NCBI GenBank assembly: GCA_030668875.1
Contig: DAOVER010000032.1
Coordinates: 1 to 31,247, forward strand
Length of the DNA stretch: 31,247 nt
Source of the DNA: Candidatus Heimdallarchaeota archaeon
Lineage (GTDB): Archaea; Asgardarchaeota; Heimdallarchaeia; Heimdallarchaeales; Heimdallarchaeaceae
Direction of reading: 5' to 3'
The position numbers and the translations under genes were made by a program. The notes below the pieces were generated by a model that worked only from the letters and a program-made list of their open reading frames with translations, did no database searches and had not been told where the DNA came from. This document shows, piece after piece, positions 151 through 17,187 of this stretch. The number at the start of each line of letters is the position of its first letter. The stretch's first letter is position 1.

Positions 151-2091
151 TGGCAAGTTTAACCAAGTTTCATAACGTGCGTCTTTACTTACAGCTATTT
201 CAAAGGTTACATTAAATGTTGATTCTTCACCCACAATATTTTCTAGTTGGTTAATGGGGACTCTAATGTCTACCTCTCCAGCTGCATTTGTAGTAAATGG
301 TCCCAATGATTTTGCTCCATAAGTAATATTTACTTGAGCATTTTTAATAGAAATCTCTTGCTCATCTACGCACTTAATAGTGAAAAATACATCTTCATCA
401 TAACCTTGGATAGCTCGAATTTGAGATGGATTTGTTGATATTCCTATCTCCTTCTCAATATAGAAATATAGAGTAAAATCTAGTATGGTAAAACCTGAGT
501 GTGTTACTAAAACATCCATCTCGTGTTCTCCTCCTACTTCTGCTGAAAAATTGAGGAAAATTTCTTTGGGATTATTTATCTTTTCTCCAACAAAAAATGT
601 TGTTGCAAGAGGTACATAAGTAATGTATGAAACATTCAAATTGGAGTGAGAAGATATCATTAACTTCAATTCCATACCAGTTGAACTGTTACTACTACCA
701 AAAATTGAACTTGTTTCTGCAAATTTCAGATAATACTTGAAAGTTGTTTCTTGAAAGATTCGTAGATACTGATCTCTTAACAACATAGAATCTAGAGGTA
801 GGATTTTGGTTAGCATTGTTATTACTTGAGCATTCACAATGACTGGATTTCTATACTGCTTTAACCAGTCAAGATATAAAATAGAGCCAGTTGTCGTCAT
901 ACCTGCTTCAAAGAAGGCAGGGAAAACAAATAAATTAAAAAATAATTGGTCTACAACAGGTAAAACTTCTATCAGGCTCTGAGGAGATCCTGTAAAATCA
1001 TATTTCATTCTATTGAATTCAATTATCTGTGAGAGAGCTAAACAATTATCATAGGTTCTAGCTTCATCTTTAAGGACTGGTCCGCTTAAATCATATACTG
1101 AATGAAACAATCCTGTATCAGGGCTTCTGAACATTTCTAAAGCTGCTAATTCAAATAAATCAGCAGCATTAAAATAGTAATTTGCTAATCCAGTTGCTGC
1201 AATAGATGCTTGATAAGCACTGTGTTGTAATAAAGCAGTATTCATATACAGATTTCCTTGTAAATCAGCTTGATTATCAGTATCAGAACCAGAATTATTT
1301 GTACTTCTGAATAAGTAGCCAATACTTGCATCCAACAATGTTACAGAGACATTCCCATTCAAAAGGTAGAAATCCACTGTTTTCTTAGCTTCTGCATAAT
1401 AGACAGAACTATCATTAAGCAAATTATTTGCCATAGTAAAGAGTCCTGTGGACTTTGCAGATTGTTGACTTAAACCTCCTGTAACATTCCCAGATGGTAA
1501 ATCTACATACATTGTTTCATTTATTGATCCTGTTGGAGTATGATAGAAAACATCTACAATGCCATCCATTGTTATATTTGCTAAGTCCCAAAAAACATCA
1601 GCTAAAGAATCACCAATAAGATCCAGTGCTTGAGCTAATCTACAGTAAGCTATTACTAACAATAAATTATCTTCAGCATGGAAATCATAAAACATACCAT
1701 CGAAATTTCCTGATATATAGGTAAAGTTAACTTCAAGGTTCAATGAAGCTGAGTCAAATAATGCATCAACGAGAAAGTTTGTATCATTAGTGACATAAAA
1801 CATATCGATAGAAGCAAGCATCATTTGAATTATAGATAGATCCTCTAAACGATTTGTAGGATTGTCACCAATAGGAAAAATATCTCTTATACTATTTTCA
1901 ACGTTAAAAGCATACTCTATCCCTGAACCCCAACAATAATCTGCAATTTGATCATTTCTAGGTTCTGGAAAGAATTTGGTAACACTTTCTTCCAGATAGG
2001 TAGATGTTTCTTCTATAGGAACTAACTCCACAGCAAGAACGGTTTTCTCTATTGTACCAAAGAAAGGAAAAACGAGTAACATGAATATCAT
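139..2091 (-). CDS. Secreted/membrane-anchored protein with six-hairpin glycosidase-like (alpha/alpha)6 region and C-terminal beta/Ig-like region
   Basis: 650-aa ORF with N-terminal hydrophobic segment. Repeated helical units with xEDNxxxxxA and RTYDNCLA motifs resemble AGE/GH76/YyaL-type barrels; beta-rich C-terminus. The frame stays open upstream to 2217, so the true start may be earlier. Confidence 0.55.
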   Translation of the reverse strand: MIFMLLVFPFFGTIEKTVLAVELVPIEETSTYLEESVTKFFPEPRNDQIADYCWGSGIEYAFNVENSIRDIFPIGDNPTNRLEDLSIIQMMLASIDMFYVTNDTNFLVDALFDSASLNLEVNFTYISGNFDGMFYDFHAEDNLLLVIAYCRLAQALDLIGDSLADVFWDLANITMDGIVDVFYHTPTGSINETMYVDLPSGNVTGGLSQQSAKSTGLFTMANNLLNDSSVYYAEAKKTVDFYLLNGNVSVTLLDASIGYLFRSTNNSGSDTDNQADLQGNLYMNTALLQHSAYQASIAATGLANYYFNAADLFELAALEMFRSPDTGLFHSVYDLSGPVLKDEARTYDNCLALSQIIEFNRMKYDFTGSPQSLIEVLPVVDQLFFNLFVFPAFFEAGMTTTGSILYLDWLKQYRNPVIVNAQVITMLTKILPLDSMLLRDQYLRIFQETTFKYYLKFAETSSIFGSSNSSTGMELKLMISSHSNLNVSYITYVPLATTFFVGEKINNPKEIFLNFSAEVGGEHEMDVLVTHSGFTILDFTLYFYIEKEIGISTNPSQIRAIQGYDEDVFFTIKCVDEQEISIKNAQVNITYGAKSLGPFTTNAAGEVDIRVPINQLENIVGEESTFNVTFEIAVSKDARYETWLNLPEAV

Positions 2092-2182
2092 TAAGTAAAC
2101 TACAAGTTTTTTCTTAGAATAAATAAAAAGAAATTGATTACTTTTAAAAAAAGGGACTGTATTATTAGAAAAATATCTGGAA

Positions 2183-3916
2183 CTATTTGTTGTTTTCTTT
2201 AATGAGTAAATATTCCCTTACTATTTTCTCTAAATTCTCTTTCGTTATCCTAGTATCTTTACTAATTTTTCCATCTAGCATCTCTATATGACGGAATCCT
2301 GGTCTCAGTAATGTTAAATCGTGAGAACATGTTACAACGGTTGCTTTGTTGATTCTAACAATATCCATCAGAAGATCTATAATATGTCTTGCTAGTTCAG
2401 TATCAAGGTTTGCTGTGGGTTCATCAGTTAGGATGATTTTTGTCTTTCTTGATAGAGCTGATGCTAAGGCCGCTCTTTGTTTTTCACCTTCTGAGAGTTC
2501 ATAGGGATAGGCATCTAAACGATGGACAATATGACACTCTTTAGCAATTGAATCACTGTATTCCACATCGAATTCTTGATCTGAAAAAATACTGGGTATA
2601 AGGAAGTTCTCATGAACCATTATAGGATCAAAGAGGTTATTATGTTGAGAAACATAAGCAATGTTTGCAAGTCTAAAAGAGGAAATTTCTCTTTCTTTCT
2701 CTTCACTAATAGGATAGTTCATAACATTCACAAAACCGTCATTTGGTTTGAGTAAACCAGCTATCATGTTAAGAAGAGTGGTTTTACCAACACCACTAGG
2801 TCCAGATATGAAAACAAAGTCACCTTCATGAATATCTAAACTCATATTCTTGATAACTTCGTTATAACCTGCTTGAGAATGATAACCTTTTGTCACATTT
2901 TTGATTTTAATCAGTTTTTTCTTCTTAGCAGGAGGTATAAATGCTCTACTTAAGAGATGCTCAACATCTTTGAAAGTTATCTGTTCAAGCTTTTCTTCAC
3001 TTTCTTTAGCAGGTTTAGAAATTATCTCGTAAATCTTATCTCTACTTATTGCTTCAGGGTTCCAGAAAAGACCAAGTTTCCTAGAGGGGTGAGTGTCAAA
3101 TTCCACAATATCCTTGATAGCAGCTGTAGCCTTAACTTCATCAGGAACCCGAACAAAATTAGATGCATCCATATAGGAACGATTAATGTCAGAAGAATGC
3201 ATAAGAAATTCAAGTTCATCTCTTTCCATATCTCTACTTATACCCGCAAGTCTCCCATCTCTGATAATGAAGCTTTTCTCGAAAATGGTTCTGAACCTTA
3301 TATCATGAGTAACAACTACAATGGTCTTGCCTAAAGTTAGGTTAACCTGTCTCATCGCATCGATGAGATCTTGAGTGTTTTTTGTATCTAATTGACCAGT
3401 CGGTTCATCGGCTAGTAAAATCAAAGGATCCTTTGCAAGCGCGACGCCCATAGATAAGCGCATGGCTTCACCACCGGATAGTTTTCCCACTTTGTTATTG
3501 TATACGTGTCTAAGATTCAGCAATTTAGCGATTTCTTCAACATCCTTCCTTGCTTGCTCTTTGGGTAAATAGAACATCTTCTTAGGAATCATCAGGTTTT
3601 GTTTTACCGATAAATGTGAGAAGAGATTGTCACTGATAAATTGATTAATCAATCCAAGGTTATGAAAACGAAACTCCCTTCTTTCAAATTCCAGGAGGTG
3701 ATCATACCTTTGACCTTTCACACTTATTTGACCACTTGTTGGAAGTTCAATACCGGCAAGAATTTTTATTAGTGTGGTCTTACCTGCACCGCTAGGGCCG
3801 ATTACGGAGACAAGTTCTCCTTCTTTTATATTTAAATCCAATCCTCTTAGAGCAGCTACTTTGTAATTAGTTATTGGATCATGGTAGACCTTTATTACAT
3901 CAATACAGTTTATCAT
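2183..3916 (-). CDS. ABC ATPase with two tandem LolD/MacB-type nucleotide-binding domains
   Basis: NBD1: GPSGAGKT, LSGGE, ADEPT, VTHD. NBD2: GPSGVGKT, LSEGE, TDEPT, CSHD. Start moved to ATG 3916 (MINCIDVIK), which follows GGAGTG and lies just after the permease stop at 3922. Confidence 0.9.
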   Translation of the reverse strand: MINCIDVIKVYHDPITNYKVAALRGLDLNIKEGELVSVIGPSGAGKTTLIKILAGIELPTSGQISVKGQRYDHLLEFERREFRFHNLGLINQFISDNLFSHLSVKQNLMIPKKMFYLPKEQARKDVEEIAKLLNLRHVYNNKVGKLSGGEAMRLSMGVALAKDPLILLADEPTGQLDTKNTQDLIDAMRQVNLTLGKTIVVVTHDIRFRTIFEKSFIIRDGRLAGISRDMERDELEFLMHSSDINRSYMDASNFVRVPDEVKATAAIKDIVEFDTHPSRKLGLFWNPEAISRDKIYEIISKPAKESEEKLEQITFKDVEHLLSRAFIPPAKKKKLIKIKNVTKGYHSQAGYNEVIKNMSLDIHEGDFVFISGPSGVGKTTLLNMIAGLLKPNDGFVNVMNYPISEEKEREISSFRLANIAYVSQHNNLFDPIMVHENFLIPSIFSDQEFDVEYSDSIAKECHIVHRLDAYPYELSEGEKQRAALASALSRKTKIILTDEPTANLDTELARHIIDLLMDIVRINKATVVTCSHDLTLLRPGFRHIEMLDGKISKDTRITKENLEKIVREYLLIKENNK

Positions 3917-9871: not shown

Positions 9872-12127
9872 TTATCTTTTATTTTTATGTTTTTCACTGA
9901 TTTGAAGGAGCATTTTCTTTAGTTCTTCAGGGAAATCTTCACCAGTTAATTTCTTCATCTTTTTCATCATTGCTTTGATATCCTCTGGATTCAAGCCTTT
10001 TGCTCGTTCTTTTAGATTTTCTATCATTTCTGGAGTTAAACCTTTACTAGATTGTTGTTCCATTGGAGACACACCATCCTTTTCCTTTTTCATCTTTTTC
10101 ATTTCTCTCTTTGATGGTTTTTTGCCTTTCATACCACCATGCTTTTGTCCCATTGCCATTTTATGAGCGTTGCCTTTCTTTGTTTGAATATCTTGGTCAA
10201 GTGTTTCTATCCCTAGATCTTCGGGCTTAATCATTATATCAGCCAAACCTTGATGAACATAATAGGTATTATAGAGATCAGCATAGATACCTTCTTTTTC
10301 CATCAGTTCATTATGATTGCCAAGTTCTTTGAGTTCTCCCTGGTCTAAAACTACAATTCTGTCCGCATCTTTTATTGTTGAAAGACGATGGGCTATAACA
10401 AAAGTTGTTCTTCCCTTGAACAGCTCTCTCTGTGCAGCTTGTACCAGAGATTCTGTGTAAGCATCTAATCTGCTTGTTGCTTCATCTAATACAAGGATTC
10501 TAGGATCAGCGAGCATTGTTCTTGCAACAGTAATTATTTGACGCTGTCCGGCGGAGAGCTTCTTTCCACCTTCAACAACTTGATTGTCATATCCTTGTGG
10601 TAAAGCTTCAATAAACTCATCAGCATTAATTCTCTTGCTTATATCATAAACATCTTCCTCTGTTGCATTAGGAGCTCCATATAGAATGTTCTCCATAACG
10701 GAACCTGTGAAAAGAAATGGTTCTTGTGTAACTAAGCCGATTGCTTGCCTAAGCGAGGATTGTTTGACTGATCTGATATCTTGATCACCTATACTAATTG
10801 AACCGTTATTTACATCATAAAATCTCGTTAATAGAGAAGAAAACAAAGTGGTTTTTCCAGCTCCAGTATGACCAACAACTGCAATCATTTCACCGGGTTT
10901 TGCAGAAAAACTCACATTGGTCAAAACATACTCGTTTGCTTCATACGCAAAACTCACTTTATTGAAATTAACGGTATCATCTTCAATCTGTAAATCTTCT
11001 GCATCTTCTACATCTGCAACAGCTGGTTTTGCTTCGAATATGTCTATTACTCTATCCATTGCACCTAATGCAGATTCTAGTTGTGGAAACATCATAGATA
11101 ACATTACCATTGGGAACAAGAATGACTGTGATAGTTGGAGAACTTTGAAGATGTCTCCAATACTAAAGAAAGCTGACATATTTATCCAACCACTTGCTAA
11201 GATTACAACTATGAAAACCCCGTAACCTAAAGCGGTCATCGATGGAAAAACAAACATCATAAGCATTCCAAACTGTCTTGAATATTTGTAGTGCTGGTGA
11301 TTTAATTCTCTCAACTCAGTAGCTAATTCTTCTTCTCTATTGAAGGATTTAGCAACCGCTATCCCTTCTAATCCTTCAGCCATTTTACCTGAGACGATTC
11401 CAAATGCTCTTCTTACTCGTAATACTATTTTTCGAGCAAAAAAGCTCAAGCCACCTGCCATAATGAAAATTGATGGCAATGCTCCCAAAGTCATTAAACC
11501 TATAATCCAACTAGTTATCATTAGCATTACGAAGGATGCTATGATCAATAATAGTTGTGAAACTATCGATGTAAACATCTGAAGACCTACAGCTAATTCC
11601 CCTGTATCAGCTGTAACTCTAGCTGTAATGTTTCCAGATTGTTCATTTTTAAGATAAGCCATGTCAGAATAACTTAGTTTTGTGTAGAGATCTGATCGTA
11701 CCTCATGAAGCATTTTAGAATTCATGTTAGCCATTATCCGAGTTGAAAATGAGCTAATTACCCACCCAATAGCAGTTATAACAAGGAATACTATAACTAG
11801 AATTATTAGGGTAGTATATACTGAAAAACTCGAAAGGTCTGTTACATATGAAGCATTGTATCCTTCTCTAATTATCATAGTATATGCTGAAAAGCTCGAA
11901 ATGTTTGACACATCTAAGCCATTAAGTCCTTCTCCTATTATCAGTGGATTAACAACTGTAAGAGCTGAGTACAAAATCGATATTACTACAACAAGAAATA
12001 TTTCCCAGACATATTTTTTGATGTAACTCCACAAATAGCTAAGTAAAACACGAGTAGATCTAGCTCTCTTGTATTTCTCTTTCCCAAATCGAGCAGGTCC
12101 TCTACCTGCACCTGCACCGTGAACCAT
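9872..12127 (-). CDS. Type IV ABC exporter half-transporter (TMD+NBD), TM288/LmrD-like subunit with C-terminal extension
   Basis: TM domain, then GHTGAGKT, LSAGQRQ, ILVLDEATS (catalytic Glu present) and IAHRLST. ATG overlaps the upstream stop (TAATG). Confidence 0.92.
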   Translation of the reverse strand: MVHGAGAGRGPARFGKEKYKRARSTRVLLSYLWSYIKKYVWEIFLVVVISILYSALTVVNPLIIGEGLNGLDVSNISSFSAYTMIIREGYNASYVTDLSSFSVYTTLIILVIVFLVITAIGWVISSFSTRIMANMNSKMLHEVRSDLYTKLSYSDMAYLKNEQSGNITARVTADTGELAVGLQMFTSIVSQLLLIIASFVMLMITSWIIGLMTLGALPSIFIMAGGLSFFARKIVLRVRRAFGIVSGKMAEGLEGIAVAKSFNREEELATELRELNHQHYKYSRQFGMLMMFVFPSMTALGYGVFIVVILASGWINMSAFFSIGDIFKVLQLSQSFLFPMVMLSMMFPQLESALGAMDRVIDIFEAKPAVADVEDAEDLQIEDDTVNFNKVSFAYEANEYVLTNVSFSAKPGEMIAVVGHTGAGKTTLFSSLLTRFYDVNNGSISIGDQDIRSVKQSSLRQAIGLVTQEPFLFTGSVMENILYGAPNATEEDVYDISKRINADEFIEALPQGYDNQVVEGGKKLSAGQRQIITVARTMLADPRILVLDEATSRLDAYTESLVQAAQRELFKGRTTFVIAHRLSTIKDADRIVVLDQGELKELGNHNELMEKEGIYADLYNTYYVHQGLADIMIKPEDLGIETLDQDIQTKKGNAHKMAMGQKHGGMKGKKPSKREMKKMKKEKDGVSPMEQQSSKGLTPEMIENLKERAKGLNPEDIKAMMKKMKKLTGEDFPEELKKMLLQISEKHKNKR

Positions 12128-13992
12128 TATGCATTACCTCCCATTGAAGTATCATTATTTTGACGCTCGTTCTCAGTCATGGGTAAGTGTTTGCACATAA
12201 ACTGGTAATCTGGACTAGTTTTTAGTAATTCTTTATGTTTACCTATACCAATAATAGAGCCTCTTTTCATAAATATTATAATGTCCGCTGCAACAAGAGT
12301 GGTCAGTCTTTGTGTGACCACAATGCTTGTTCGATCCCTCATTAATTCATCCATGGCATATCTAAGACGAAGCTCAGTTTTGATATCTACTGCACTTGTA
12401 CTATCATCTAAAAGAAGTATTCTTGGATTTGATAACATAGCTCGCGCAATAGCTACACGTTGTCGTTGCCCTCCTGATAAAGTAACACCACGTTCTCCTA
12501 TTACAGTGTCATATCCTTCAGGGAGCGAATCTATAAATGTAGCAATTTGAGCTCTCTCAGCAGCTTTTCTTATTTCTTCAGAAGTAGCATCAGGTTTTGA
12601 AAAAGTGATATTAGCTTTGAGAGTATCAGAAAATAAGAATATATCCTGTTCTACCATTGTTACATTGGATCTAACATAGTTTGTATGCATTGATTCAATA
12701 GAAACGCCACCAACATTTATTGTACCTTCTGTCGGGTCATATAATCTCAAAATCAATTTAAGAATTGTTGACTTTCCAGATCCAGGGCCCCCAATTAGTG
12801 CTACTCTTGCACCTGGAGGAATACTAAATGAAACATTTTTCAATACAAGTTTTTCTGTTCCGGGATAAGCAAAACTAACATTATCGAATCCTACAGTTTT
12901 ATCCCAATCAGCATCTTGTGGAGTTTTTGGTTGAACTAATGGATCGTTGAAATCCATGACATTCCATAAACGTTTTGCGTTCTGTAAACCTGCTTGAAGA
13001 TTTATCAAGTGAGCTGGAATCATGAAATTTTGTCTGTTCAAATTCAGAAGTAAACCCAAAATAGATATGAGAACACCTGCACCTAGTAACCCATAGTTTC
13101 CTTGTATGACATTGTATAAACCATAGGCAAACGCAGCAGCAGTAATAATAATTGTTATGAGAGCTGGCCAATAAAATGAACTGAGATAACCTTCCCTTTT
13201 CATATCTGTAGCATATTCTTCACTTACATGGTTAAATTTTGTAATTTCTTTTTCATGATTGTCGAAAGATCTTACAGTATCTACTCCTTTAAACATCTCT
13301 TGTGAGACTGCAGAAAGATTTCCTAGATCTGTAGCTAGTTTCTTTCTTATCGGTCCTACACGTTCAGCATAAAACCAAGCTATTATGAAATAAACCACAA
13401 AAGCTGCTGCTAGAACTGTTCCGATTATCCAATCGTATTCTATCACAAGATATGTGGTTATGACAATTGTAAAAAATGAATTAAGTAGATGTCTAAATGA
13501 TGGGTGCATTGCTAATCTTATTTGGTTTACTTCATTCATACCCATTGATAATACGACCCCAGAATCATTCACATCAAAAAAAGCCATAGAATGTTGTTGA
13601 ATAACTTCATAGAATTCTTGTCTTATATCTCGTTGAAATCTGAAAGAAGTATCAGCCCAGATATAAATACTTCCACTTGAACCTACAAAACCTATTGCAA
13701 TATAAACAATCATCCAAATTATAGTTGTAATGAAATCACTAGAAAATATTGTAAGATTCTCGCTTACATTATAAGATAAAATTCCCACAACATTACCTAC
13801 AAGCGCCACAGTTTTAGCTGAGGTGAATGCACTTCCTGCCATCAATATGGTTGCGATTAGATATCGAATAGGATAGCGCAACAAAGCTGACCAAAACCAT
13901 CGGGTTTCTGTTTTATATTTTTTCAAGATCTCTTGTTGAATATTATCATTATAGTTCATTCCATTATCGTTTGTTACTGTTTGAACTGCCAT
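12127..13992 (-). CDS. Type IV ABC exporter half-transporter, TM287/LmrC-like subunit (degenerate site)
   Basis: TM domain, then GGPGSGKS, LSGGQRQ, ILLLDDSTS (Glu to Asp) and VTQR (His to Gln), the typical degenerate partner of a heterodimeric exporter. GGAG precedes the ATG. Confidence 0.92.
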   Translation of the reverse strand: MAVQTVTNDNGMNYNDNIQQEILKKYKTETRWFWSALLRYPIRYLIATILMAGSAFTSAKTVALVGNVVGILSYNVSENLTIFSSDFITTIIWMIVYIAIGFVGSSGSIYIWADTSFRFQRDIRQEFYEVIQQHSMAFFDVNDSGVVLSMGMNEVNQIRLAMHPSFRHLLNSFFTIVITTYLVIEYDWIIGTVLAAAFVVYFIIAWFYAERVGPIRKKLATDLGNLSAVSQEMFKGVDTVRSFDNHEKEITKFNHVSEEYATDMKREGYLSSFYWPALITIIITAAAFAYGLYNVIQGNYGLLGAGVLISILGLLLNLNRQNFMIPAHLINLQAGLQNAKRLWNVMDFNDPLVQPKTPQDADWDKTVGFDNVSFAYPGTEKLVLKNVSFSIPPGARVALIGGPGSGKSTILKLILRLYDPTEGTINVGGVSIESMHTNYVRSNVTMVEQDIFLFSDTLKANITFSKPDATSEEIRKAAERAQIATFIDSLPEGYDTVIGERGVTLSGGQRQRVAIARAMLSNPRILLLDDSTSAVDIKTELRLRYAMDELMRDRTSIVVTQRLTTLVAADIIIFMKRGSIIGIGKHKELLKTSPDYQFMCKHLPMTENERQNNDTSMGGNA

Positions 13993-14047: not shown

Positions 14048-15043
14048 TTATTTTATTTTCTCCAAAATTCTTGTTATCTCATTTTTATGCTCAGATAATT
14101 TGGTTTTGAGAAACTCTTTTGTCATTTTTCTCTCCTCTTCACTTTCCAACCTTTCTAAAAATTGAGGAATCATTTCAGGTTTTTGAAGTAAGAAGTGAAT
14201 ATTCGGTAGAGATAAACCATATTCCATCATCATGTGTGCAAATGGTCTTCGTTTGTGCCTTCCTCTTCTCATCATTATTTTCTTCCTTTGCTCATGTGGA
14301 ATATCACTTGCCAATCGTCTAAACAGCAATCTAAAAGGATTTATCACACCAAAGTCAGAATACTCCTTTCTCATTACTTTATGTGCTTCAACTCTGAAAA
14401 TGAAAGACGTAATGTCTATCATGGATAGAATTGATATATTTAGAGCTTTTCGTCCCAAATCTGTTATTCCATAAATTTTCTTGAGTCTTCCACCATCAAT
14501 ATTTTCAGCCTTTAATTCGATGAGACCATTTTTTTCGAGAGAATCAATTGCTGGGTAAATTCCACTTATGTTTGACCAAATTTCTGTGGTTGACTCTATT
14601 TCATGTTTTGTTTTTTCAAAGTTGGCGATCACTCCATCTAGGTATTCTAACTCATGTTCAATTGAAATGGAAGAATCTCTATTCAGAATTCTATTGATGT
14701 TAGGGTTTAATTTTAGGATTAAACATTTCTCTAGAGATTCTTCAATTTCTTGTTTCTTCCTGTTATATTCATCTGAATCTAACTCCAGTTTGTTTGCTAA
14801 ATGATGTATTTTTAATAGGTGTACGAGGTGATTCTCAACAAACTCAATTCCTTCTCGCTTATGTTTGAACAGAATATCAGAAGCTTTGGATCGGATTTCA
14901 TATGCATGATCACCTTCCTCAGTTCTAGCAAGATGAACTAGTATTGCGATTTCGCCTAGCCTTCTAGCTAGTTTTTCTTCAAATTTACTTGCTGCATCTT
15001 CCTTAAATTTACCTTTGTTTTCTGGTCTATTTCTTCTACTCAT
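14048..15043 (-). CDS. PadR-family transcriptional regulator with a large internal insertion
   Basis: AILVHL...HAYEI and SGIYPAIDSLEKNGLI...RLKKIYGITDLGRKAL are PadR wHTH motifs, here about 110 residues apart. Lies directly upstream of the ABC exporter pair. Confidence 0.8.
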   Translation of the reverse strand: MSRRNRPENKGKFKEDAASKFEEKLARRLGEIAILVHLARTEEGDHAYEIRSKASDILFKHKREGIEFVENHLVHLLKIHHLANKLELDSDEYNRKKQEIEESLEKCLILKLNPNINRILNRDSSISIEHELEYLDGVIANFEKTKHEIESTTEIWSNISGIYPAIDSLEKNGLIELKAENIDGGRLKKIYGITDLGRKALNISILSMIDITSFIFRVEAHKVMRKEYSDFGVINPFRLLFRRLASDIPHEQRKKIMMRRGRHKRRPFAHMMMEYGLSLPNIHFLLQKPEMIPQFLERLESEEERKMTKEFLKTKLSEHKNEITRILEKIK

Positions 15044-15106: not shown

Positions 15107-15126
15107 ATATTCAGATTTCTGAATAT
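15107..15126. promoter_or_regulatory. Candidate PadR operator palindrome
   Basis: Perfect ATATTCAG-ATTT-CTGAATAT inverted repeat between the TATA-like box (15141-15152) and the PadR start codon (15043). Confidence 0.5.
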
Positions 15127-15140
15127 TATGAAAAAAGTAA

Positions 15141-15152
15141 TATTTATAAATA
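15141..15152 (-). promoter_or_regulatory. TATA box of the padR-ABC operon
   Basis: TATTTATAAATA containing TTTATAAA, about 100 nt upstream of the padR ATG. Confidence 0.45.
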
Positions 15153-15189: not shown

Positions 15190-15975
15190 TTATTCTACAT
15201 CAGGGATGTAAGGTTCTTCATCTTTGATTAGTTCAACAATTTCACTATAAGCCTGTTTAACTTCTAACTCCTCACCTATTAGTAAGAAATGTAAGGAACC
15301 TTCACCATCTCCTACTCCACCGGAACCGATGTGAAAAATAGTTAATTCAGGATAGAGAACGTCAAAGGCTTCCAACTCTGTAAATACTTCTCCAGGAATA
15401 GGCATTATACCTATAGGGAGACCCATACAATACTCTGGATCTACTGTTTGATTTCCGAGTATTTGGGAGAGTTCCCAGACACTATCATCTATTGTTCTTG
15501 AAAGACTGATTGGTACAATTATACTTATACCCCTAGCTGTTGCATGTGGTAATATTCCACCAATTGTTCCTCCTTCCGGATGGGCCATATAGACTCCAGC
15601 AATACCATCTGTACCCAAAGTATTTCCTCCTTTAAAGACAATATCACCAGGTTTGAAATTCTTGAGTTCTTCATGAAGAGAATCAATCTCTCTTTTTACT
15701 CCTTTATCAAGAACAACTTCTTTCAAACGTTTTTCTCCCTTCAAACCTCCATATCTATAGAGATTTTCTTTATCACCAGTCATCTGACCTGCAACATAAT
15801 GGCGTTTTTCAAAAGGGACACCAGTTAGTTCTTCTAATACATATGCAGTAGTTGAGCCTCTAGAAACAAATATTTTTCCTTCATCGAGAGCATATTTCAC
15901 TTCAGGATGTTCTTTTAATCCTCTAGCAATTAACCTTTTGCACTCAGAATGAGTTAATACAATTAAAGCGCGCAT
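15190..15975 (-). CDS. Conserved hypothetical protein (possible NagB/RpiA/CoA-transferase-like fold)
   Basis: 261 aa, Gly-rich motifs (RGSTTAYVLEEL, GDIVFKGGNTL, HPEGGTIGG, IGSGGVGDGEG) that read like a conserved soluble family. The fold guess is weak. Confidence 0.6.
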   Translation of the reverse strand: MRALIVLTHSECKRLIARGLKEHPEVKYALDEGKIFVSRGSTTAYVLEELTGVPFEKRHYVAGQMTGDKENLYRYGGLKGEKRLKEVVLDKGVKREIDSLHEELKNFKPGDIVFKGGNTLGTDGIAGVYMAHPEGGTIGGILPHATARGISIIVPISLSRTIDDSVWELSQILGNQTVDPEYCMGLPIGIMPIPGEVFTELEAFDVLYPELTIFHIGSGGVGDGEGSLHFLLIGEELEVKQAYSEIVELIKDEEPYIPDVE

Positions 15976-16035: not shown

Positions 16036-16569
16036 CTACCAATTATCACTTGATGTTGGCGGTCTACCATGTGTCTGTAAGAACAGGTTGTATTTATTAG
16101 CAGTCCTATAAGCATCGATATGAGCGTATAAAGCTATAACGACTGCACCTATGCCACCTATAGCCATAAGTGCTATGGCTAAACCAAAGTTATAATACCA
16201 ATCAATTAGTATAAAAAACCCTCCATAAGTAACTCCAATACAAGCTACAGCACCAAAAAACAGACCAATACCTTTACCTGGTTTCCCTGCATATATATGC
16301 CCTGAACCCAACATTACAAACCACGACAAAATCACCGCAAGAGCAGGTTCTTTTCGTTTATGATAGTGTGTTGGGGGAGGAGTAAAAGGTTGTGTTCCTG
16401 AATATTGAGGTGTTGCTTGTGGATAAGGACCACTATGTTGCTGAGGAGCTGAATATTCTGGTTGATATTGAGCTTTAGCAGGTTGAGCAGCTAGTTCAGT
16501 ATCTGTTCCACAATTTTTACAATATTTTGTTCCATCAGGTAAATAAGCACCACAATTGTTACAATACAT
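16036..16569 (-). CDS. Zinc-ribbon + Gln/Pro-rich linker + TM2-like membrane protein (paralog 1)
   Basis: CNNC-x10-CKNC, QP-rich linker, KEPALAVILSWFVMLGSGHIYAGK TM2-like motif; GGTGG precedes the ATG. Confidence 0.8.
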   Translation of the reverse strand: MYCNNCGAYLPDGTKYCKNCGTDTELAAQPAKAQYQPEYSAPQQHSGPYPQATPQYSGTQPFTPPPTHYHKRKEPALAVILSWFVMLGSGHIYAGKPGKGIGLFFGAVACIGVTYGGFFILIDWYYNFGLAIALMAIGGIGAVVIALYAHIDAYRTANKYNLFLQTHGRPPTSSDNW

Positions 16570-16695: not shown

Positions 16696-17187
16696 TCACC
16701 ATTTATCTCCTGATGTGGGTACTCTGCCATGAGTATCAATAAAACTGTTATATTTCCTTACTTGCACATACGCATCTATTACACACCACAATTGGACTGC
16801 AAAAACTACAGGGATGATCCAGAACACTATGAATGGGTCATAAGTCGTAAGAACTAAAATTACTATAAGAACACCTAAAGACACAATTCCTCCAATGAAA
16901 GCGAATCCTCTACCCACTTTTCCAGCATACATCTGGCCAGATCCCAACATTACAAACATCGATAGAAGTACTGCTACAACAGGAGTTTTGCGTGAAAGAT
17001 GAGCTCCTTGTATTGGTTGAGCATAAGCTGGTTGTTGATAAGGACCACTATGTTGTTGAGGAGCTGAATATTCTGGCTGAGAGTGAGATTTAACAGGTTG
17101 AGTTGCTAAACCACTATCAGCACCACAATTAGAACAAAACCTTGTTCCTTCAGTCATTATAGAACCACAGTTATTACAATACGACAT
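16696..17187 (-). CDS. Zinc-ribbon + Gln/Pro-rich linker + TM2-like membrane protein (paralog 2)
   Basis: CNNC-x10-CSNC, QP-rich linker, KTPVVAVLLSMFVMLGSGQMYAGK; GGTGA precedes the ATG. Confidence 0.8.
   Translation of the reverse strand: MSYCNNCGSIMTEGTRFCSNCGADSGLATQPVKSHSQPEYSAPQQHSGPYQQPAYAQPIQGAHLSRKTPVVAVLLSMFVMLGSGQMYAGKVGRGFAFIGGIVSLGVLIVILVLTTYDPFIVFWIIPVVFAVQLWCVIDAYVQVRKYNSFIDTHGRVPTSGDKW

Follow-up and report, generated by a model that had tools for sequence, protein, structure and literature searches.

A PadR-family regulator of Heimdallarchaeota with a helical hairpin inserted in its winged helix-turn-helix and a conserved palindrome upstream of its exporter operon

Can a domain of the winged helix-turn-helix (wHTH) type be interrupted by about 95 residues between its second and third helices and still be rebuilt as a single DNA-reading unit? 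The question is raised by a gene encoding a PadR-family regulator in Candidatus Heimdallarchaeota archaeon (assembly GCA_030668875.1, contig DAOVER010000032.1, positions 1 to 31,247; this whole stretch of 31,247 nucleotides (nt) is called the window hereafter). The gene (P0001; 14048..15043, minus strand) is an open reading frame (ORF) for a protein of 331 amino acids (aa) that scores 34.3 bits with the Pfam model PF03551, above the 27-bit cut-off of the family. The match is confined to residues 157-201 and covers profile positions 29-73 of 75; the opening third of the PadR domain must therefore be sought elsewhere in the chain. The PadR-type models of NCBIfam likewise match residues 160-215 only, and PadR matches were obtained with Pfam in all 28 diverse members of the family. 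The three motifs published for PadR proteins (PMC3506622) are present in variant form. Helix α2 carries D-H-A-Y-E-I at residues 45-50 (HAYEI, 46-50), with H46, A47, Y48 and E49 invariant or nearly so among 34 close homologues. The α3 motif, published as EGT(L/I)YPxLxRLE, is found as SGIYPAIDSLE at residues 160-170 (SGIYP, 160-164), with Y163 invariant even in the distant set, where P164 is replaced by Gln; and the wing motif, published as G(P/R)RKYYx(L/I)TxxG, is found as GGRLKKIYGITDLG at residues 184-197, with R186, K188, I190, T194 and G197 invariant. By score, motifs and predicted fold the protein is thus a PadR-family member.

The contiguous N-terminal wHTH of about 80-90 residues that is typical of the family is broken here. 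From the Tyr of helix 2 to the Tyr of helix 3 the regulator counts 115 residues, whereas in three ordinary PadR proteins of the same genome the helix-2 aromatic residue (Tyr or Trp) lies 20-24 residues from the helix-3 Tyr. The long spacing is kept at 110-115 residues in the 34 close homologues and at 105-120 in the 28 diverse ones, which makes the insert a conserved in-frame feature and not the outcome of chance, a frameshift or an assembly artefact; an intein and an intron were also ruled out as its origin, the insert being in frame, helical and conserved. The first wHTH half, with α1, the start of α2 and HAYEI, comprises residues 20-58 (14870..14986, minus strand), and its mean identity in the close family is 76%. 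It is followed by the insert, residues 59-155 (14579..14869, minus strand), in which α2 continues into a small helical cap, followed by a long return helix, as seen in the models and the alignment. The second wHTH half, residues 156-223 (14375..14578, minus strand), contains the IW-x-x-S-G-IYP recognition helix α3, the β wing and α4, with 75% mean identity over residues 156-194, and a C-terminal helical extension kept across the family occupies residues 224-331 (14051..14374, minus strand). An earlier note on this DNA, made from its letters, had described just such a placement of HAYEI and SGIYP on either side of about 95 residues inside the helix-turn-helix, and its coordinates for the insert agree with codons 59-155; the His-rich stretch NHLVHLLKIHHL to which it drew attention corresponds to residues 71-82 and the Cys to residue 107.

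Whether the two halves fold together was addressed with an AlphaFold2 model of the whole protein, built from an alignment of 34 sequences (mean predicted local distance difference test score, pLDDT, 75; predicted template modelling score, pTM, 0.61). The model contains α1 (residues 7-40), a long helix (47-85) that starts as α2, short helices at 91-106, 108-111 and 114-120, the return helix (129-152), the recognition helix α3 (159-171), the wing strands (175-193) and α4 (195-223); the C-terminal helices are less confident (pLDDT 42-85 over the extension), and within the insert pLDDT ranges from 80 to 93. The insertion point falls after canonical α2 and before the conserved Trp of the W-x-x-S-x-G-x-x-Y-P segment. 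In the model α2 is extended by about 25 residues, the cap reverses the chain and the return helix leads to the conserved Trp located just before the recognition helix, so that a hairpin of about 95 residues projects from the DNA-binding domain. Complete solved PadR chains align with the model across the insert when compared with VIA-align: 7wjp over 98 of its 98 residues (root-mean-square deviation, rmsd, 1.9 Å; Z 13.2; model residues 22-222), 5dym over 95 of 96 (rmsd 2.3 Å) and 6abt over 98 of 98 (rmsd 2.2 Å), the first wHTH half pairing with the N-terminal part of those chains. Hence the wHTH is split in sequence and, as modelled, intact in three dimensions, with wHTH and α4 reassembled around the insert. 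This was the check that the earlier note had asked of a structural model, and the answer is positive. An insertion at the heart of the helix-turn-helix would normally be expected to disrupt it, and the protein might then be a protein-binding adaptor, or a decaying regulator, that no longer binds DNA. We hold this to be very improbable. No part of the protein is better conserved than the wHTH halves (mean identity to the query 75-76%), which bear the invariant residues Y48, W156, Y163, R186, K188 and G197, and the conserved, paralogue-specific promoter palindromes described below argue for sequence-specific DNA binding.

The insert itself was also folded alone. Region 44-168, modelled from a 23-sequence alignment drawn from genomic loci, gives a hairpin of two long helices with a small helical cap (pLDDT 86, pTM 0.73). 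Its hydrophobic positions recur with a spacing of 3-4 residues, in the heptad-like manner typical of packed amphipathic helices, and its mean net charge is −3.4, mildly acidic on average. Foldseek searches with the whole model returned weak PadR matches, the alignment being interrupted by the insert, and none of them reached E ≤ 0.001; VIA-align against about 48,000 representative chains plus the Foldseek candidates aligned at most 126 residues, the wHTH chains skipping the insert and none covering it. With the isolated insert the best values were E 0.23 with Foldseek and Z 9.3 with VIA-align, both within the noise of generic helical proteins. It aligns over 80-125 residues, with Z of 8-9.3, with generic helical hairpins and four-helix-bundle sensors such as flagellin D0/D1, CHMP/ESCRT-III hairpins and KinB/NarX/QseE, at 3-17% identity, with no sequence similarity and with Foldseek E values all ≥ 0.2, and no homology to them is claimed. 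According to these models the insert folds autonomously into an antiparallel helical hairpin, one without a specific known fold.

What could such a hairpin be for? One answer is an effector sensor: the insert, alone or packed on the C-terminal domain, would bind a ligand that moves the return helix and the recognition helix attached to it, by direct allostery. The geometry of the model is suited to this, since the conserved Trp and the recognition helix follow directly on the return helix; the best, non-significant structural matches include KinB (E 0.23), NarX, a QseE complex (Z 9.3) and the ligand-binding domain of Vc1313 (Z 8.0); and PadR-s1 proteins sense effectors outside the wHTH, according to PMC5728393. 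Those structural matches are, however, within the range expected of any helical hairpin, and the insert is the least conserved part of the protein, with a mean identity of 32% at fixed length; its conserved positions belong mostly to the hydrophobic core, with no conserved polar cluster that could line a pocket. We consider a sensor rather unlikely, and favour instead a hairpin acting as an arm of fixed length for protein contacts, a role to which the conservation pattern points and to which we give a little less than an even chance.

A more particular form of sensing was among the suggestions of the earlier note, which pointed to the His-rich stretch and the Cys and proposed a sensory, metal-binding or oligomerisation domain beside the recognition helix. 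Both NHLVHLLKIHHL and C107 are indeed present in the regulator, and some distant relatives adjoin a NicO-like membrane protein, but the residues are not conserved. H75, H80 and H81 are each found in two of the 34 close homologues and occur in no protein but the regulator and its 85% relative; H72 is His in 24 of the 34 and Leu, Val, Ile or Phe in distant ones, and C107 is replaced by Phe, Tyr, His, Trp or Leu. Since relatives fill the H72 and C107 positions with Leu, Val, Ile, Phe, Tyr or Trp, these are positions of the hydrophobic core. In addition, the adjacent genes encode multidrug-type ATP-binding cassette (ABC) exporters and not metal transporters. A metal-binding insert is therefore extremely improbable.

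The insert finds no counterpart among described families. When it was compared with Pfam and NCBIfam, with E values up to 10 admitted, and when the 28 diverse members were compared with Pfam, nothing was recurrent except wHTH families; residues 52-157 gave no usable match in the ESM Atlas, and a PDB sequence search with the family profile matched the second wHTH half alone. On PadR proteins of Heimdallarchaeota and Asgard archaea and on PadR insertions and subfamilies, no paper of the searched library describes this architecture, and database labels of the family proteins read 'PadR family' or 'hypothetical'. HAAS-PadR pairs (PSP paper), considered as a possible match, are a separate two-protein system, and the HAAS-type Pfam models DUF1700, DUF1129 and DUF1048 matched no member of the family. 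No Pfam, NCBIfam or PDB entry covers the insert. The proposal of a new PadR subtype is supported in part, as regards the split PadR architecture but not as regards metal binding. The novelty is that of an architectural variant within a known regulator family; its probable function, efflux control, is ordinary.

Two PadR subfamilies have been described (PMC3506622): PadR-s2, of the LmrR type, with about 110 aa and a single C-terminal helix bearing a conserved Trp, and PadR-s1, with about 180 aa and a multi-helix C-terminal domain of 80-90 aa. The regulator seems to fit neither. With 331 aa it has 108 residues past α4 (195-223), and α4 contains no Trp, nor is any conserved there in the family. 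A multi-helix C-terminal region as in PadR-s1 is present at low model confidence, and no Pfam C-terminal model matches it; the region gave no Pfam match at all in the regulator or the 28 diverse members. A comparison of the family profile with a 184-aa PadR of Bathyarchaeota (P0073) by hhalign aligned columns 153-304 with 97.5% probability (E 7e-12), taking in α3, the wing, α4 and some of the C-terminal region, where 22 residues have no counterpart in P0073. This partial match suggests that the family descended from two-domain archaeal PadR proteins of PadR-s1 size and would then have gained the hairpin and an enlarged C-terminal domain. PadR-s1 proteins (B. subtilis PadR, AphA, LadR) and archaeal PadR proteins of about 184 aa such as P0073 seem to share with the regulator the plan of a wHTH followed by a multi-helix C-terminal domain; they differ in that none has the insert, helix 2 and helix 3 being about 20 residues apart, and in that their C-terminal region is shorter. 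The earlier note had spoken of a C-terminal extension of about 130 aa, a figure that is right if one counts from the end of the Pfam match and too high beyond α4, where 108 aa remain; the extension is new in part only, since one portion of it aligns with the C-terminal domain of the insert-less archaeal proteins of about 184 aa.

How far does the architecture extend? A word-indexed search yielded 52 proteins of about 320 aa covered over their full length, those with named sources coming from Heimdallarchaeota and other Asgard metagenome-assembled genomes. An exhaustive profile search of 1.84 billion representatives gave 129 matches, about 35 of them full-length (295-350 aa) and the remainder short ordinary PadR proteins matching the second wHTH half only; the distant full-length clusters have named members in Lokiarchaeota/Promethearchaeota, Odinarchaeota and Heimdallarchaeaceae. 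Across the phylum the full-length architecture is present in about 30 of 399 genomes: the window's own genome and 21 of the 29 other genomes of its family, two of the 22 genomes of another family in that class, and one of 14 and six of 135 in two more distant families. The architecture is thus found mainly in one Heimdall family, with a patchy occurrence outside it; an absence carries limited weight, since completeness is 80-90% for many of the surveyed genomes.

The genome has 11 PadR matches in all, and other members of this set are unusual too. A 209-aa PadR-like ORF (L005, G000:C3:13673-16795, ORF 982-1611, minus strand) begins inside α3 and matches profile positions 34-74 only. A frame of 451 aa (L007, G000:C23:57763-60957, ORF 1474-2826, minus strand) has a full PadR wHTH at its C-terminus (profile positions 1-74), preceded by a long N-terminal region that looks by eye like a pyridoxal phosphate-dependent enzyme, which would make it an enzyme-regulator fusion. 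A third protein (L008, G000:C23:4039-7260, ORF 1393-2340, plus strand), of 316 aa, combines an N-terminal PadR wHTH with a C-terminal domain of about 200 aa, another non-standard PadR architecture.

The genes next to the regulator indicate what it may control. Fifty-five nt downstream, on the same strand, begins the gene of ABC exporter half-transporter 1 (12127..13992, minus strand; 621 aa), and the start of half-transporter 2 (9872..12127, minus strand; 751 aa) overlaps its stop. Both have a transmembrane and a nucleotide-binding domain (Pfam ABC_membrane and ABC_tran), and their closest solved relatives in the PDB are ABCB1/P-gp, Sav1866 and TM288. Half-transporter 1 has a degenerate ATPase site, with Asp after Walker B (ILLLDD-S) and Gln in the H-loop, whereas half-transporter 2 has the canonical Glu and His together with an LSAGQ signature. 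Asp/Gln in one half and Glu/His in the other is what characterises heterodimeric exporters in which a single ATP site is degenerate (compare TM287/288 and LmrCD). The regulator gene is thus adjacent to and co-oriented with the genes of a heterodimeric exporter, in the layout of an efflux regulon. The last 130 residues or so of half-transporter 2 (9872-10260, minus strand) form a Lys-rich low-complexity tail after the nucleotide-binding domain, in which KKMKKEK and MKKMKKL are examples of the runs. The tail seems to vary, for in several relatives the tblastn matches stop at about residue 630-655.

The same order is kept in relatives. Twenty related loci were fetched and mapped by tblastn, and in 14 of the 14 orthologous (f1) loci of the window's family the order is regulator-ABC1-ABC2. 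Two layouts occur among orthologues, that of the window and a longer one with MacB-type permease-ATPase-regulator-ABC1-ABC2 (Pfam FtsX, MacB_PCD). In a paralogue clade of about 38% identity the regulator is the last gene of a permease-ATPase-regulator cassette, and one genome has both paralogues in tandem; one such cassette (MacB-type permease, ATPase, regulator) abuts a zinc alcohol dehydrogenase gene (L044 10699-11736, minus strand). Distant relatives are divergent to a MacB-type pair or lie beside a methyltransferase and a NicO-like membrane protein. Upstream in the window a 261-aa protein without Pfam match is encoded (15190-15975, minus strand), with 72-85% identity in relatives and located 0.1-5 kb from the regulator/exporter operon in seven fetched loci. 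The neighbouring genes at 16036-16569 and 16696-17187 (both minus strand) encode proteins with an N-terminal zinc ribbon, to which the first adds a linker rich in Pro, Gln and Tyr as well as C-terminal segments of hydrophobic character.

Where would the regulator bind? A perfect 20-bp palindrome, ATATTCAGA-aa-TCTGAATAT, with 9-bp arms and a 2-nt spacer, is placed 64 nt upstream of the regulator ATG (15107..15126) and is our predicted operator; its conserved form is ATATTCAG-N4-CTGAATAT. This palindrome and the exporter operon, which the earlier note on the gene does not mention, provide the strongest evidence on function. A TATA-like box, TTTATAAATA, lies 14 nt upstream of it (15141..15150, minus strand) and would be the promoter element, itself preceded by a conserved ATAG(T/A)TA element. 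The arrangement is kept in the aligned promoters of relatives, in the order ATAG(T/A)TA, TATA-like box, 12-14-nt gap, palindrome. The 3.2-Mb genome contains one exact copy of the palindrome and none of the same pattern read backwards, used as control. Five palindromes with two mismatches occur in it, and the three examined are all inside ORFs, so they are probably due to chance and no wider regulon is indicated. Copies that are exact or have one mismatch were found at the head of the orthologous operon in 13 others of the 27 related loci examined; all intergenic copies of this quality stand in that place, 28 nt before the first gene, when this is the permease, or 62-64 nt before the regulator gene, the distance being 193 nt in L051. 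Allowing up to two mismatches, ATATTCA-N6-TGAATAT occurs at 50 sites across the fetched loci against a shuffle mean of 12, a count in which the orthologous loci are non-independent samples.

The palindrome also varies with the protein. Where these promoters have the palindrome, those of the paralogue clade show ATACTCAG-N4-(T)ATGACTAT or ATAGTTAG-N4-CTAACTAT, with the half-site ATA(C/G)T(C/T)(A/G)G, and the recognition helix of this clade starts with NSTS or NITS versus NISG in the window's clade. Altered start of α3 and altered half-site go together in the sequences, a co-variation of protein and site. Several long-operon promoters (L042, L039, L046-L050, L057, L058) contain a third element resembling a half-site, ATTCTGAA or ATTCTAAA, 5-13 nt past the palindrome and before a GAGG-type ribosome-binding site; this may serve as an additional half-site for binding, or it may be no more than a leader that has been conserved. 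Relatives of about 25-29% identity, distant Loki-type ones (about 25%) included, have two or three palindrome copies offset by 16 bp in divergent promoters. Among the loci, L049, L050, L061, L062, L064 and L065 contain tandem palindromes with this offset. In L062 (9780-11248), L064 (7998-8780) and L065 (5821-6519) the Loki-type relative is divergently paired with an S-adenosylmethionine-dependent methyltransferase and/or a NicO-like protein, not with ABC exporters, and the tandem palindromes lie in the shared divergent promoter.

These promoters bear on a further, speculative role for the hairpin. It could be an archaeal adaptor extending past the operator, one that contacts the TATA-binding protein (TBP) and transcription factor B (TFB) at the adjacent TATA box and B recognition element, or that bridges dimers on tandem operators into a higher-order repression complex. 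The short distance between the TATA-like box and the predicted operator and the 16-bp offset of the tandem palindromes would be in line with it, and the strictly kept length of the arm would suit a spacer or ruler, but only one palindrome is present in the regulator promoter of the window itself. We judge such an adaptor improbable, although less so than the loss of DNA binding. Taken more broadly, as a functional lever or ruler that either passes an effector signal onto the recognition helix or bridges operator-bound dimers or the TBP/TFB complex, the hairpin can be proposed tentatively, in a reading that is rather unlikely.

The sequence architecture, the degree to which it is conserved, the gene order and the palindrome kept in the promoters are observations; that the regulator binds DNA, represses and responds to an inducer, and what its arm does, we infer. 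The model proposed is the following. The protein is probably an Asgard-specific PadR-family repressor that autoregulates the operon formed by its own gene and the ABCB-type heterodimeric exporter, perhaps with the insert as a rigid contact arm. A dimer of the regulator would bind the 20-bp palindrome. Archaeal transcription usually starts about 25 nt after the centre of the TATA box, and from the position of the palindrome the predicted operator should overlap the transcription start. Occupied by the dimer, it would cover the start and block recruitment of RNA polymerase, which is the usual mode of archaeal repression. The substrate of the pump or a stress signal, postulated here, would release the repressor, as in lmrR-lmrCD, and the hairpin would serve as a rigid arm of fixed length for protein-protein contacts, either between dimers or with the C-terminal domain, and not as a pocket for a metal or a small molecule.

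The system to which the regulator, by analogy, seems to work most alike is LmrR/LmrCD of Lactococcus lactis, an autoregulated efflux operon governed by a PadR-s2 protein. The layout is the same, with the regulator directly upstream of two genes for an ABCB-type exporter, a heterodimer in which one ATP site is degenerate, and autoregulation through an inverted repeat, as a further common trait, is predicted. The wHTH and α4 core of the model superposes on LmrR structures (for example 9h9y, Z 11.3, 100 residues, rmsd 2.4). The differences are considerable, too: LmrR has about 110 aa against the 331 of the regulator, which alone has the 95-aa hairpin between α2 and α3 and the 108-aa C-terminal extension, and LmrR has a Trp in α4, an ATGT half-site and no archaeal TATA/TFB promoter as target, whereas the regulator lacks such a Trp and would read the half-site ATATTCAG at a promoter of that kind. 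From its family the regulator departs in three ways: a discontinuous wHTH, a different, predicted, operator half-site and no Trp of the LmrR type.

Several points weigh against the proposal. The fold is a predicted one, with an alignment of 34 related sequences as its input, and the contact role of the arm is deduced solely from the conservation pattern. The drug-binding Trp of LmrR is absent from α4. The half-site ATATTCAG differs from the bacterial PadR operators, which are ATGT-N8-10-ACAT inverted repeats (PMC3506622), although the overall span of 16-20 bp is similar. Finally, the weak, non-significant resemblance of the insert to four-helix-bundle sensors (KinB, NarX, QseE) would suit sensing.

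The junction of the two helices in a helix-turn-helix sets the geometry with which DNA is read, and for this reason large insertions there are rare. An insert held at constant length in Heimdall, Loki and Odin lineages is thus a natural test of what the helix-turn-helix tolerates and of whether regulation can be added through such an arm. If the hairpin did act as a lever or ruler, it would represent a mode of repressor control undescribed for any winged-helix family and specific to Asgard archaea, in a protein whose physiological role, apparently the control of an efflux pump, is ordinary. Gene-specific control of transcription in Asgard archaea is a subject on which there is almost no experimental knowledge. 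The locus provides a concrete candidate cis-element for these organisms, a TATA-like box, a gap of 12-14 nt and a 20-bp palindrome with paralogue-specific variants, and with it a predicted repressor-operator pair that can be tested in vitro.

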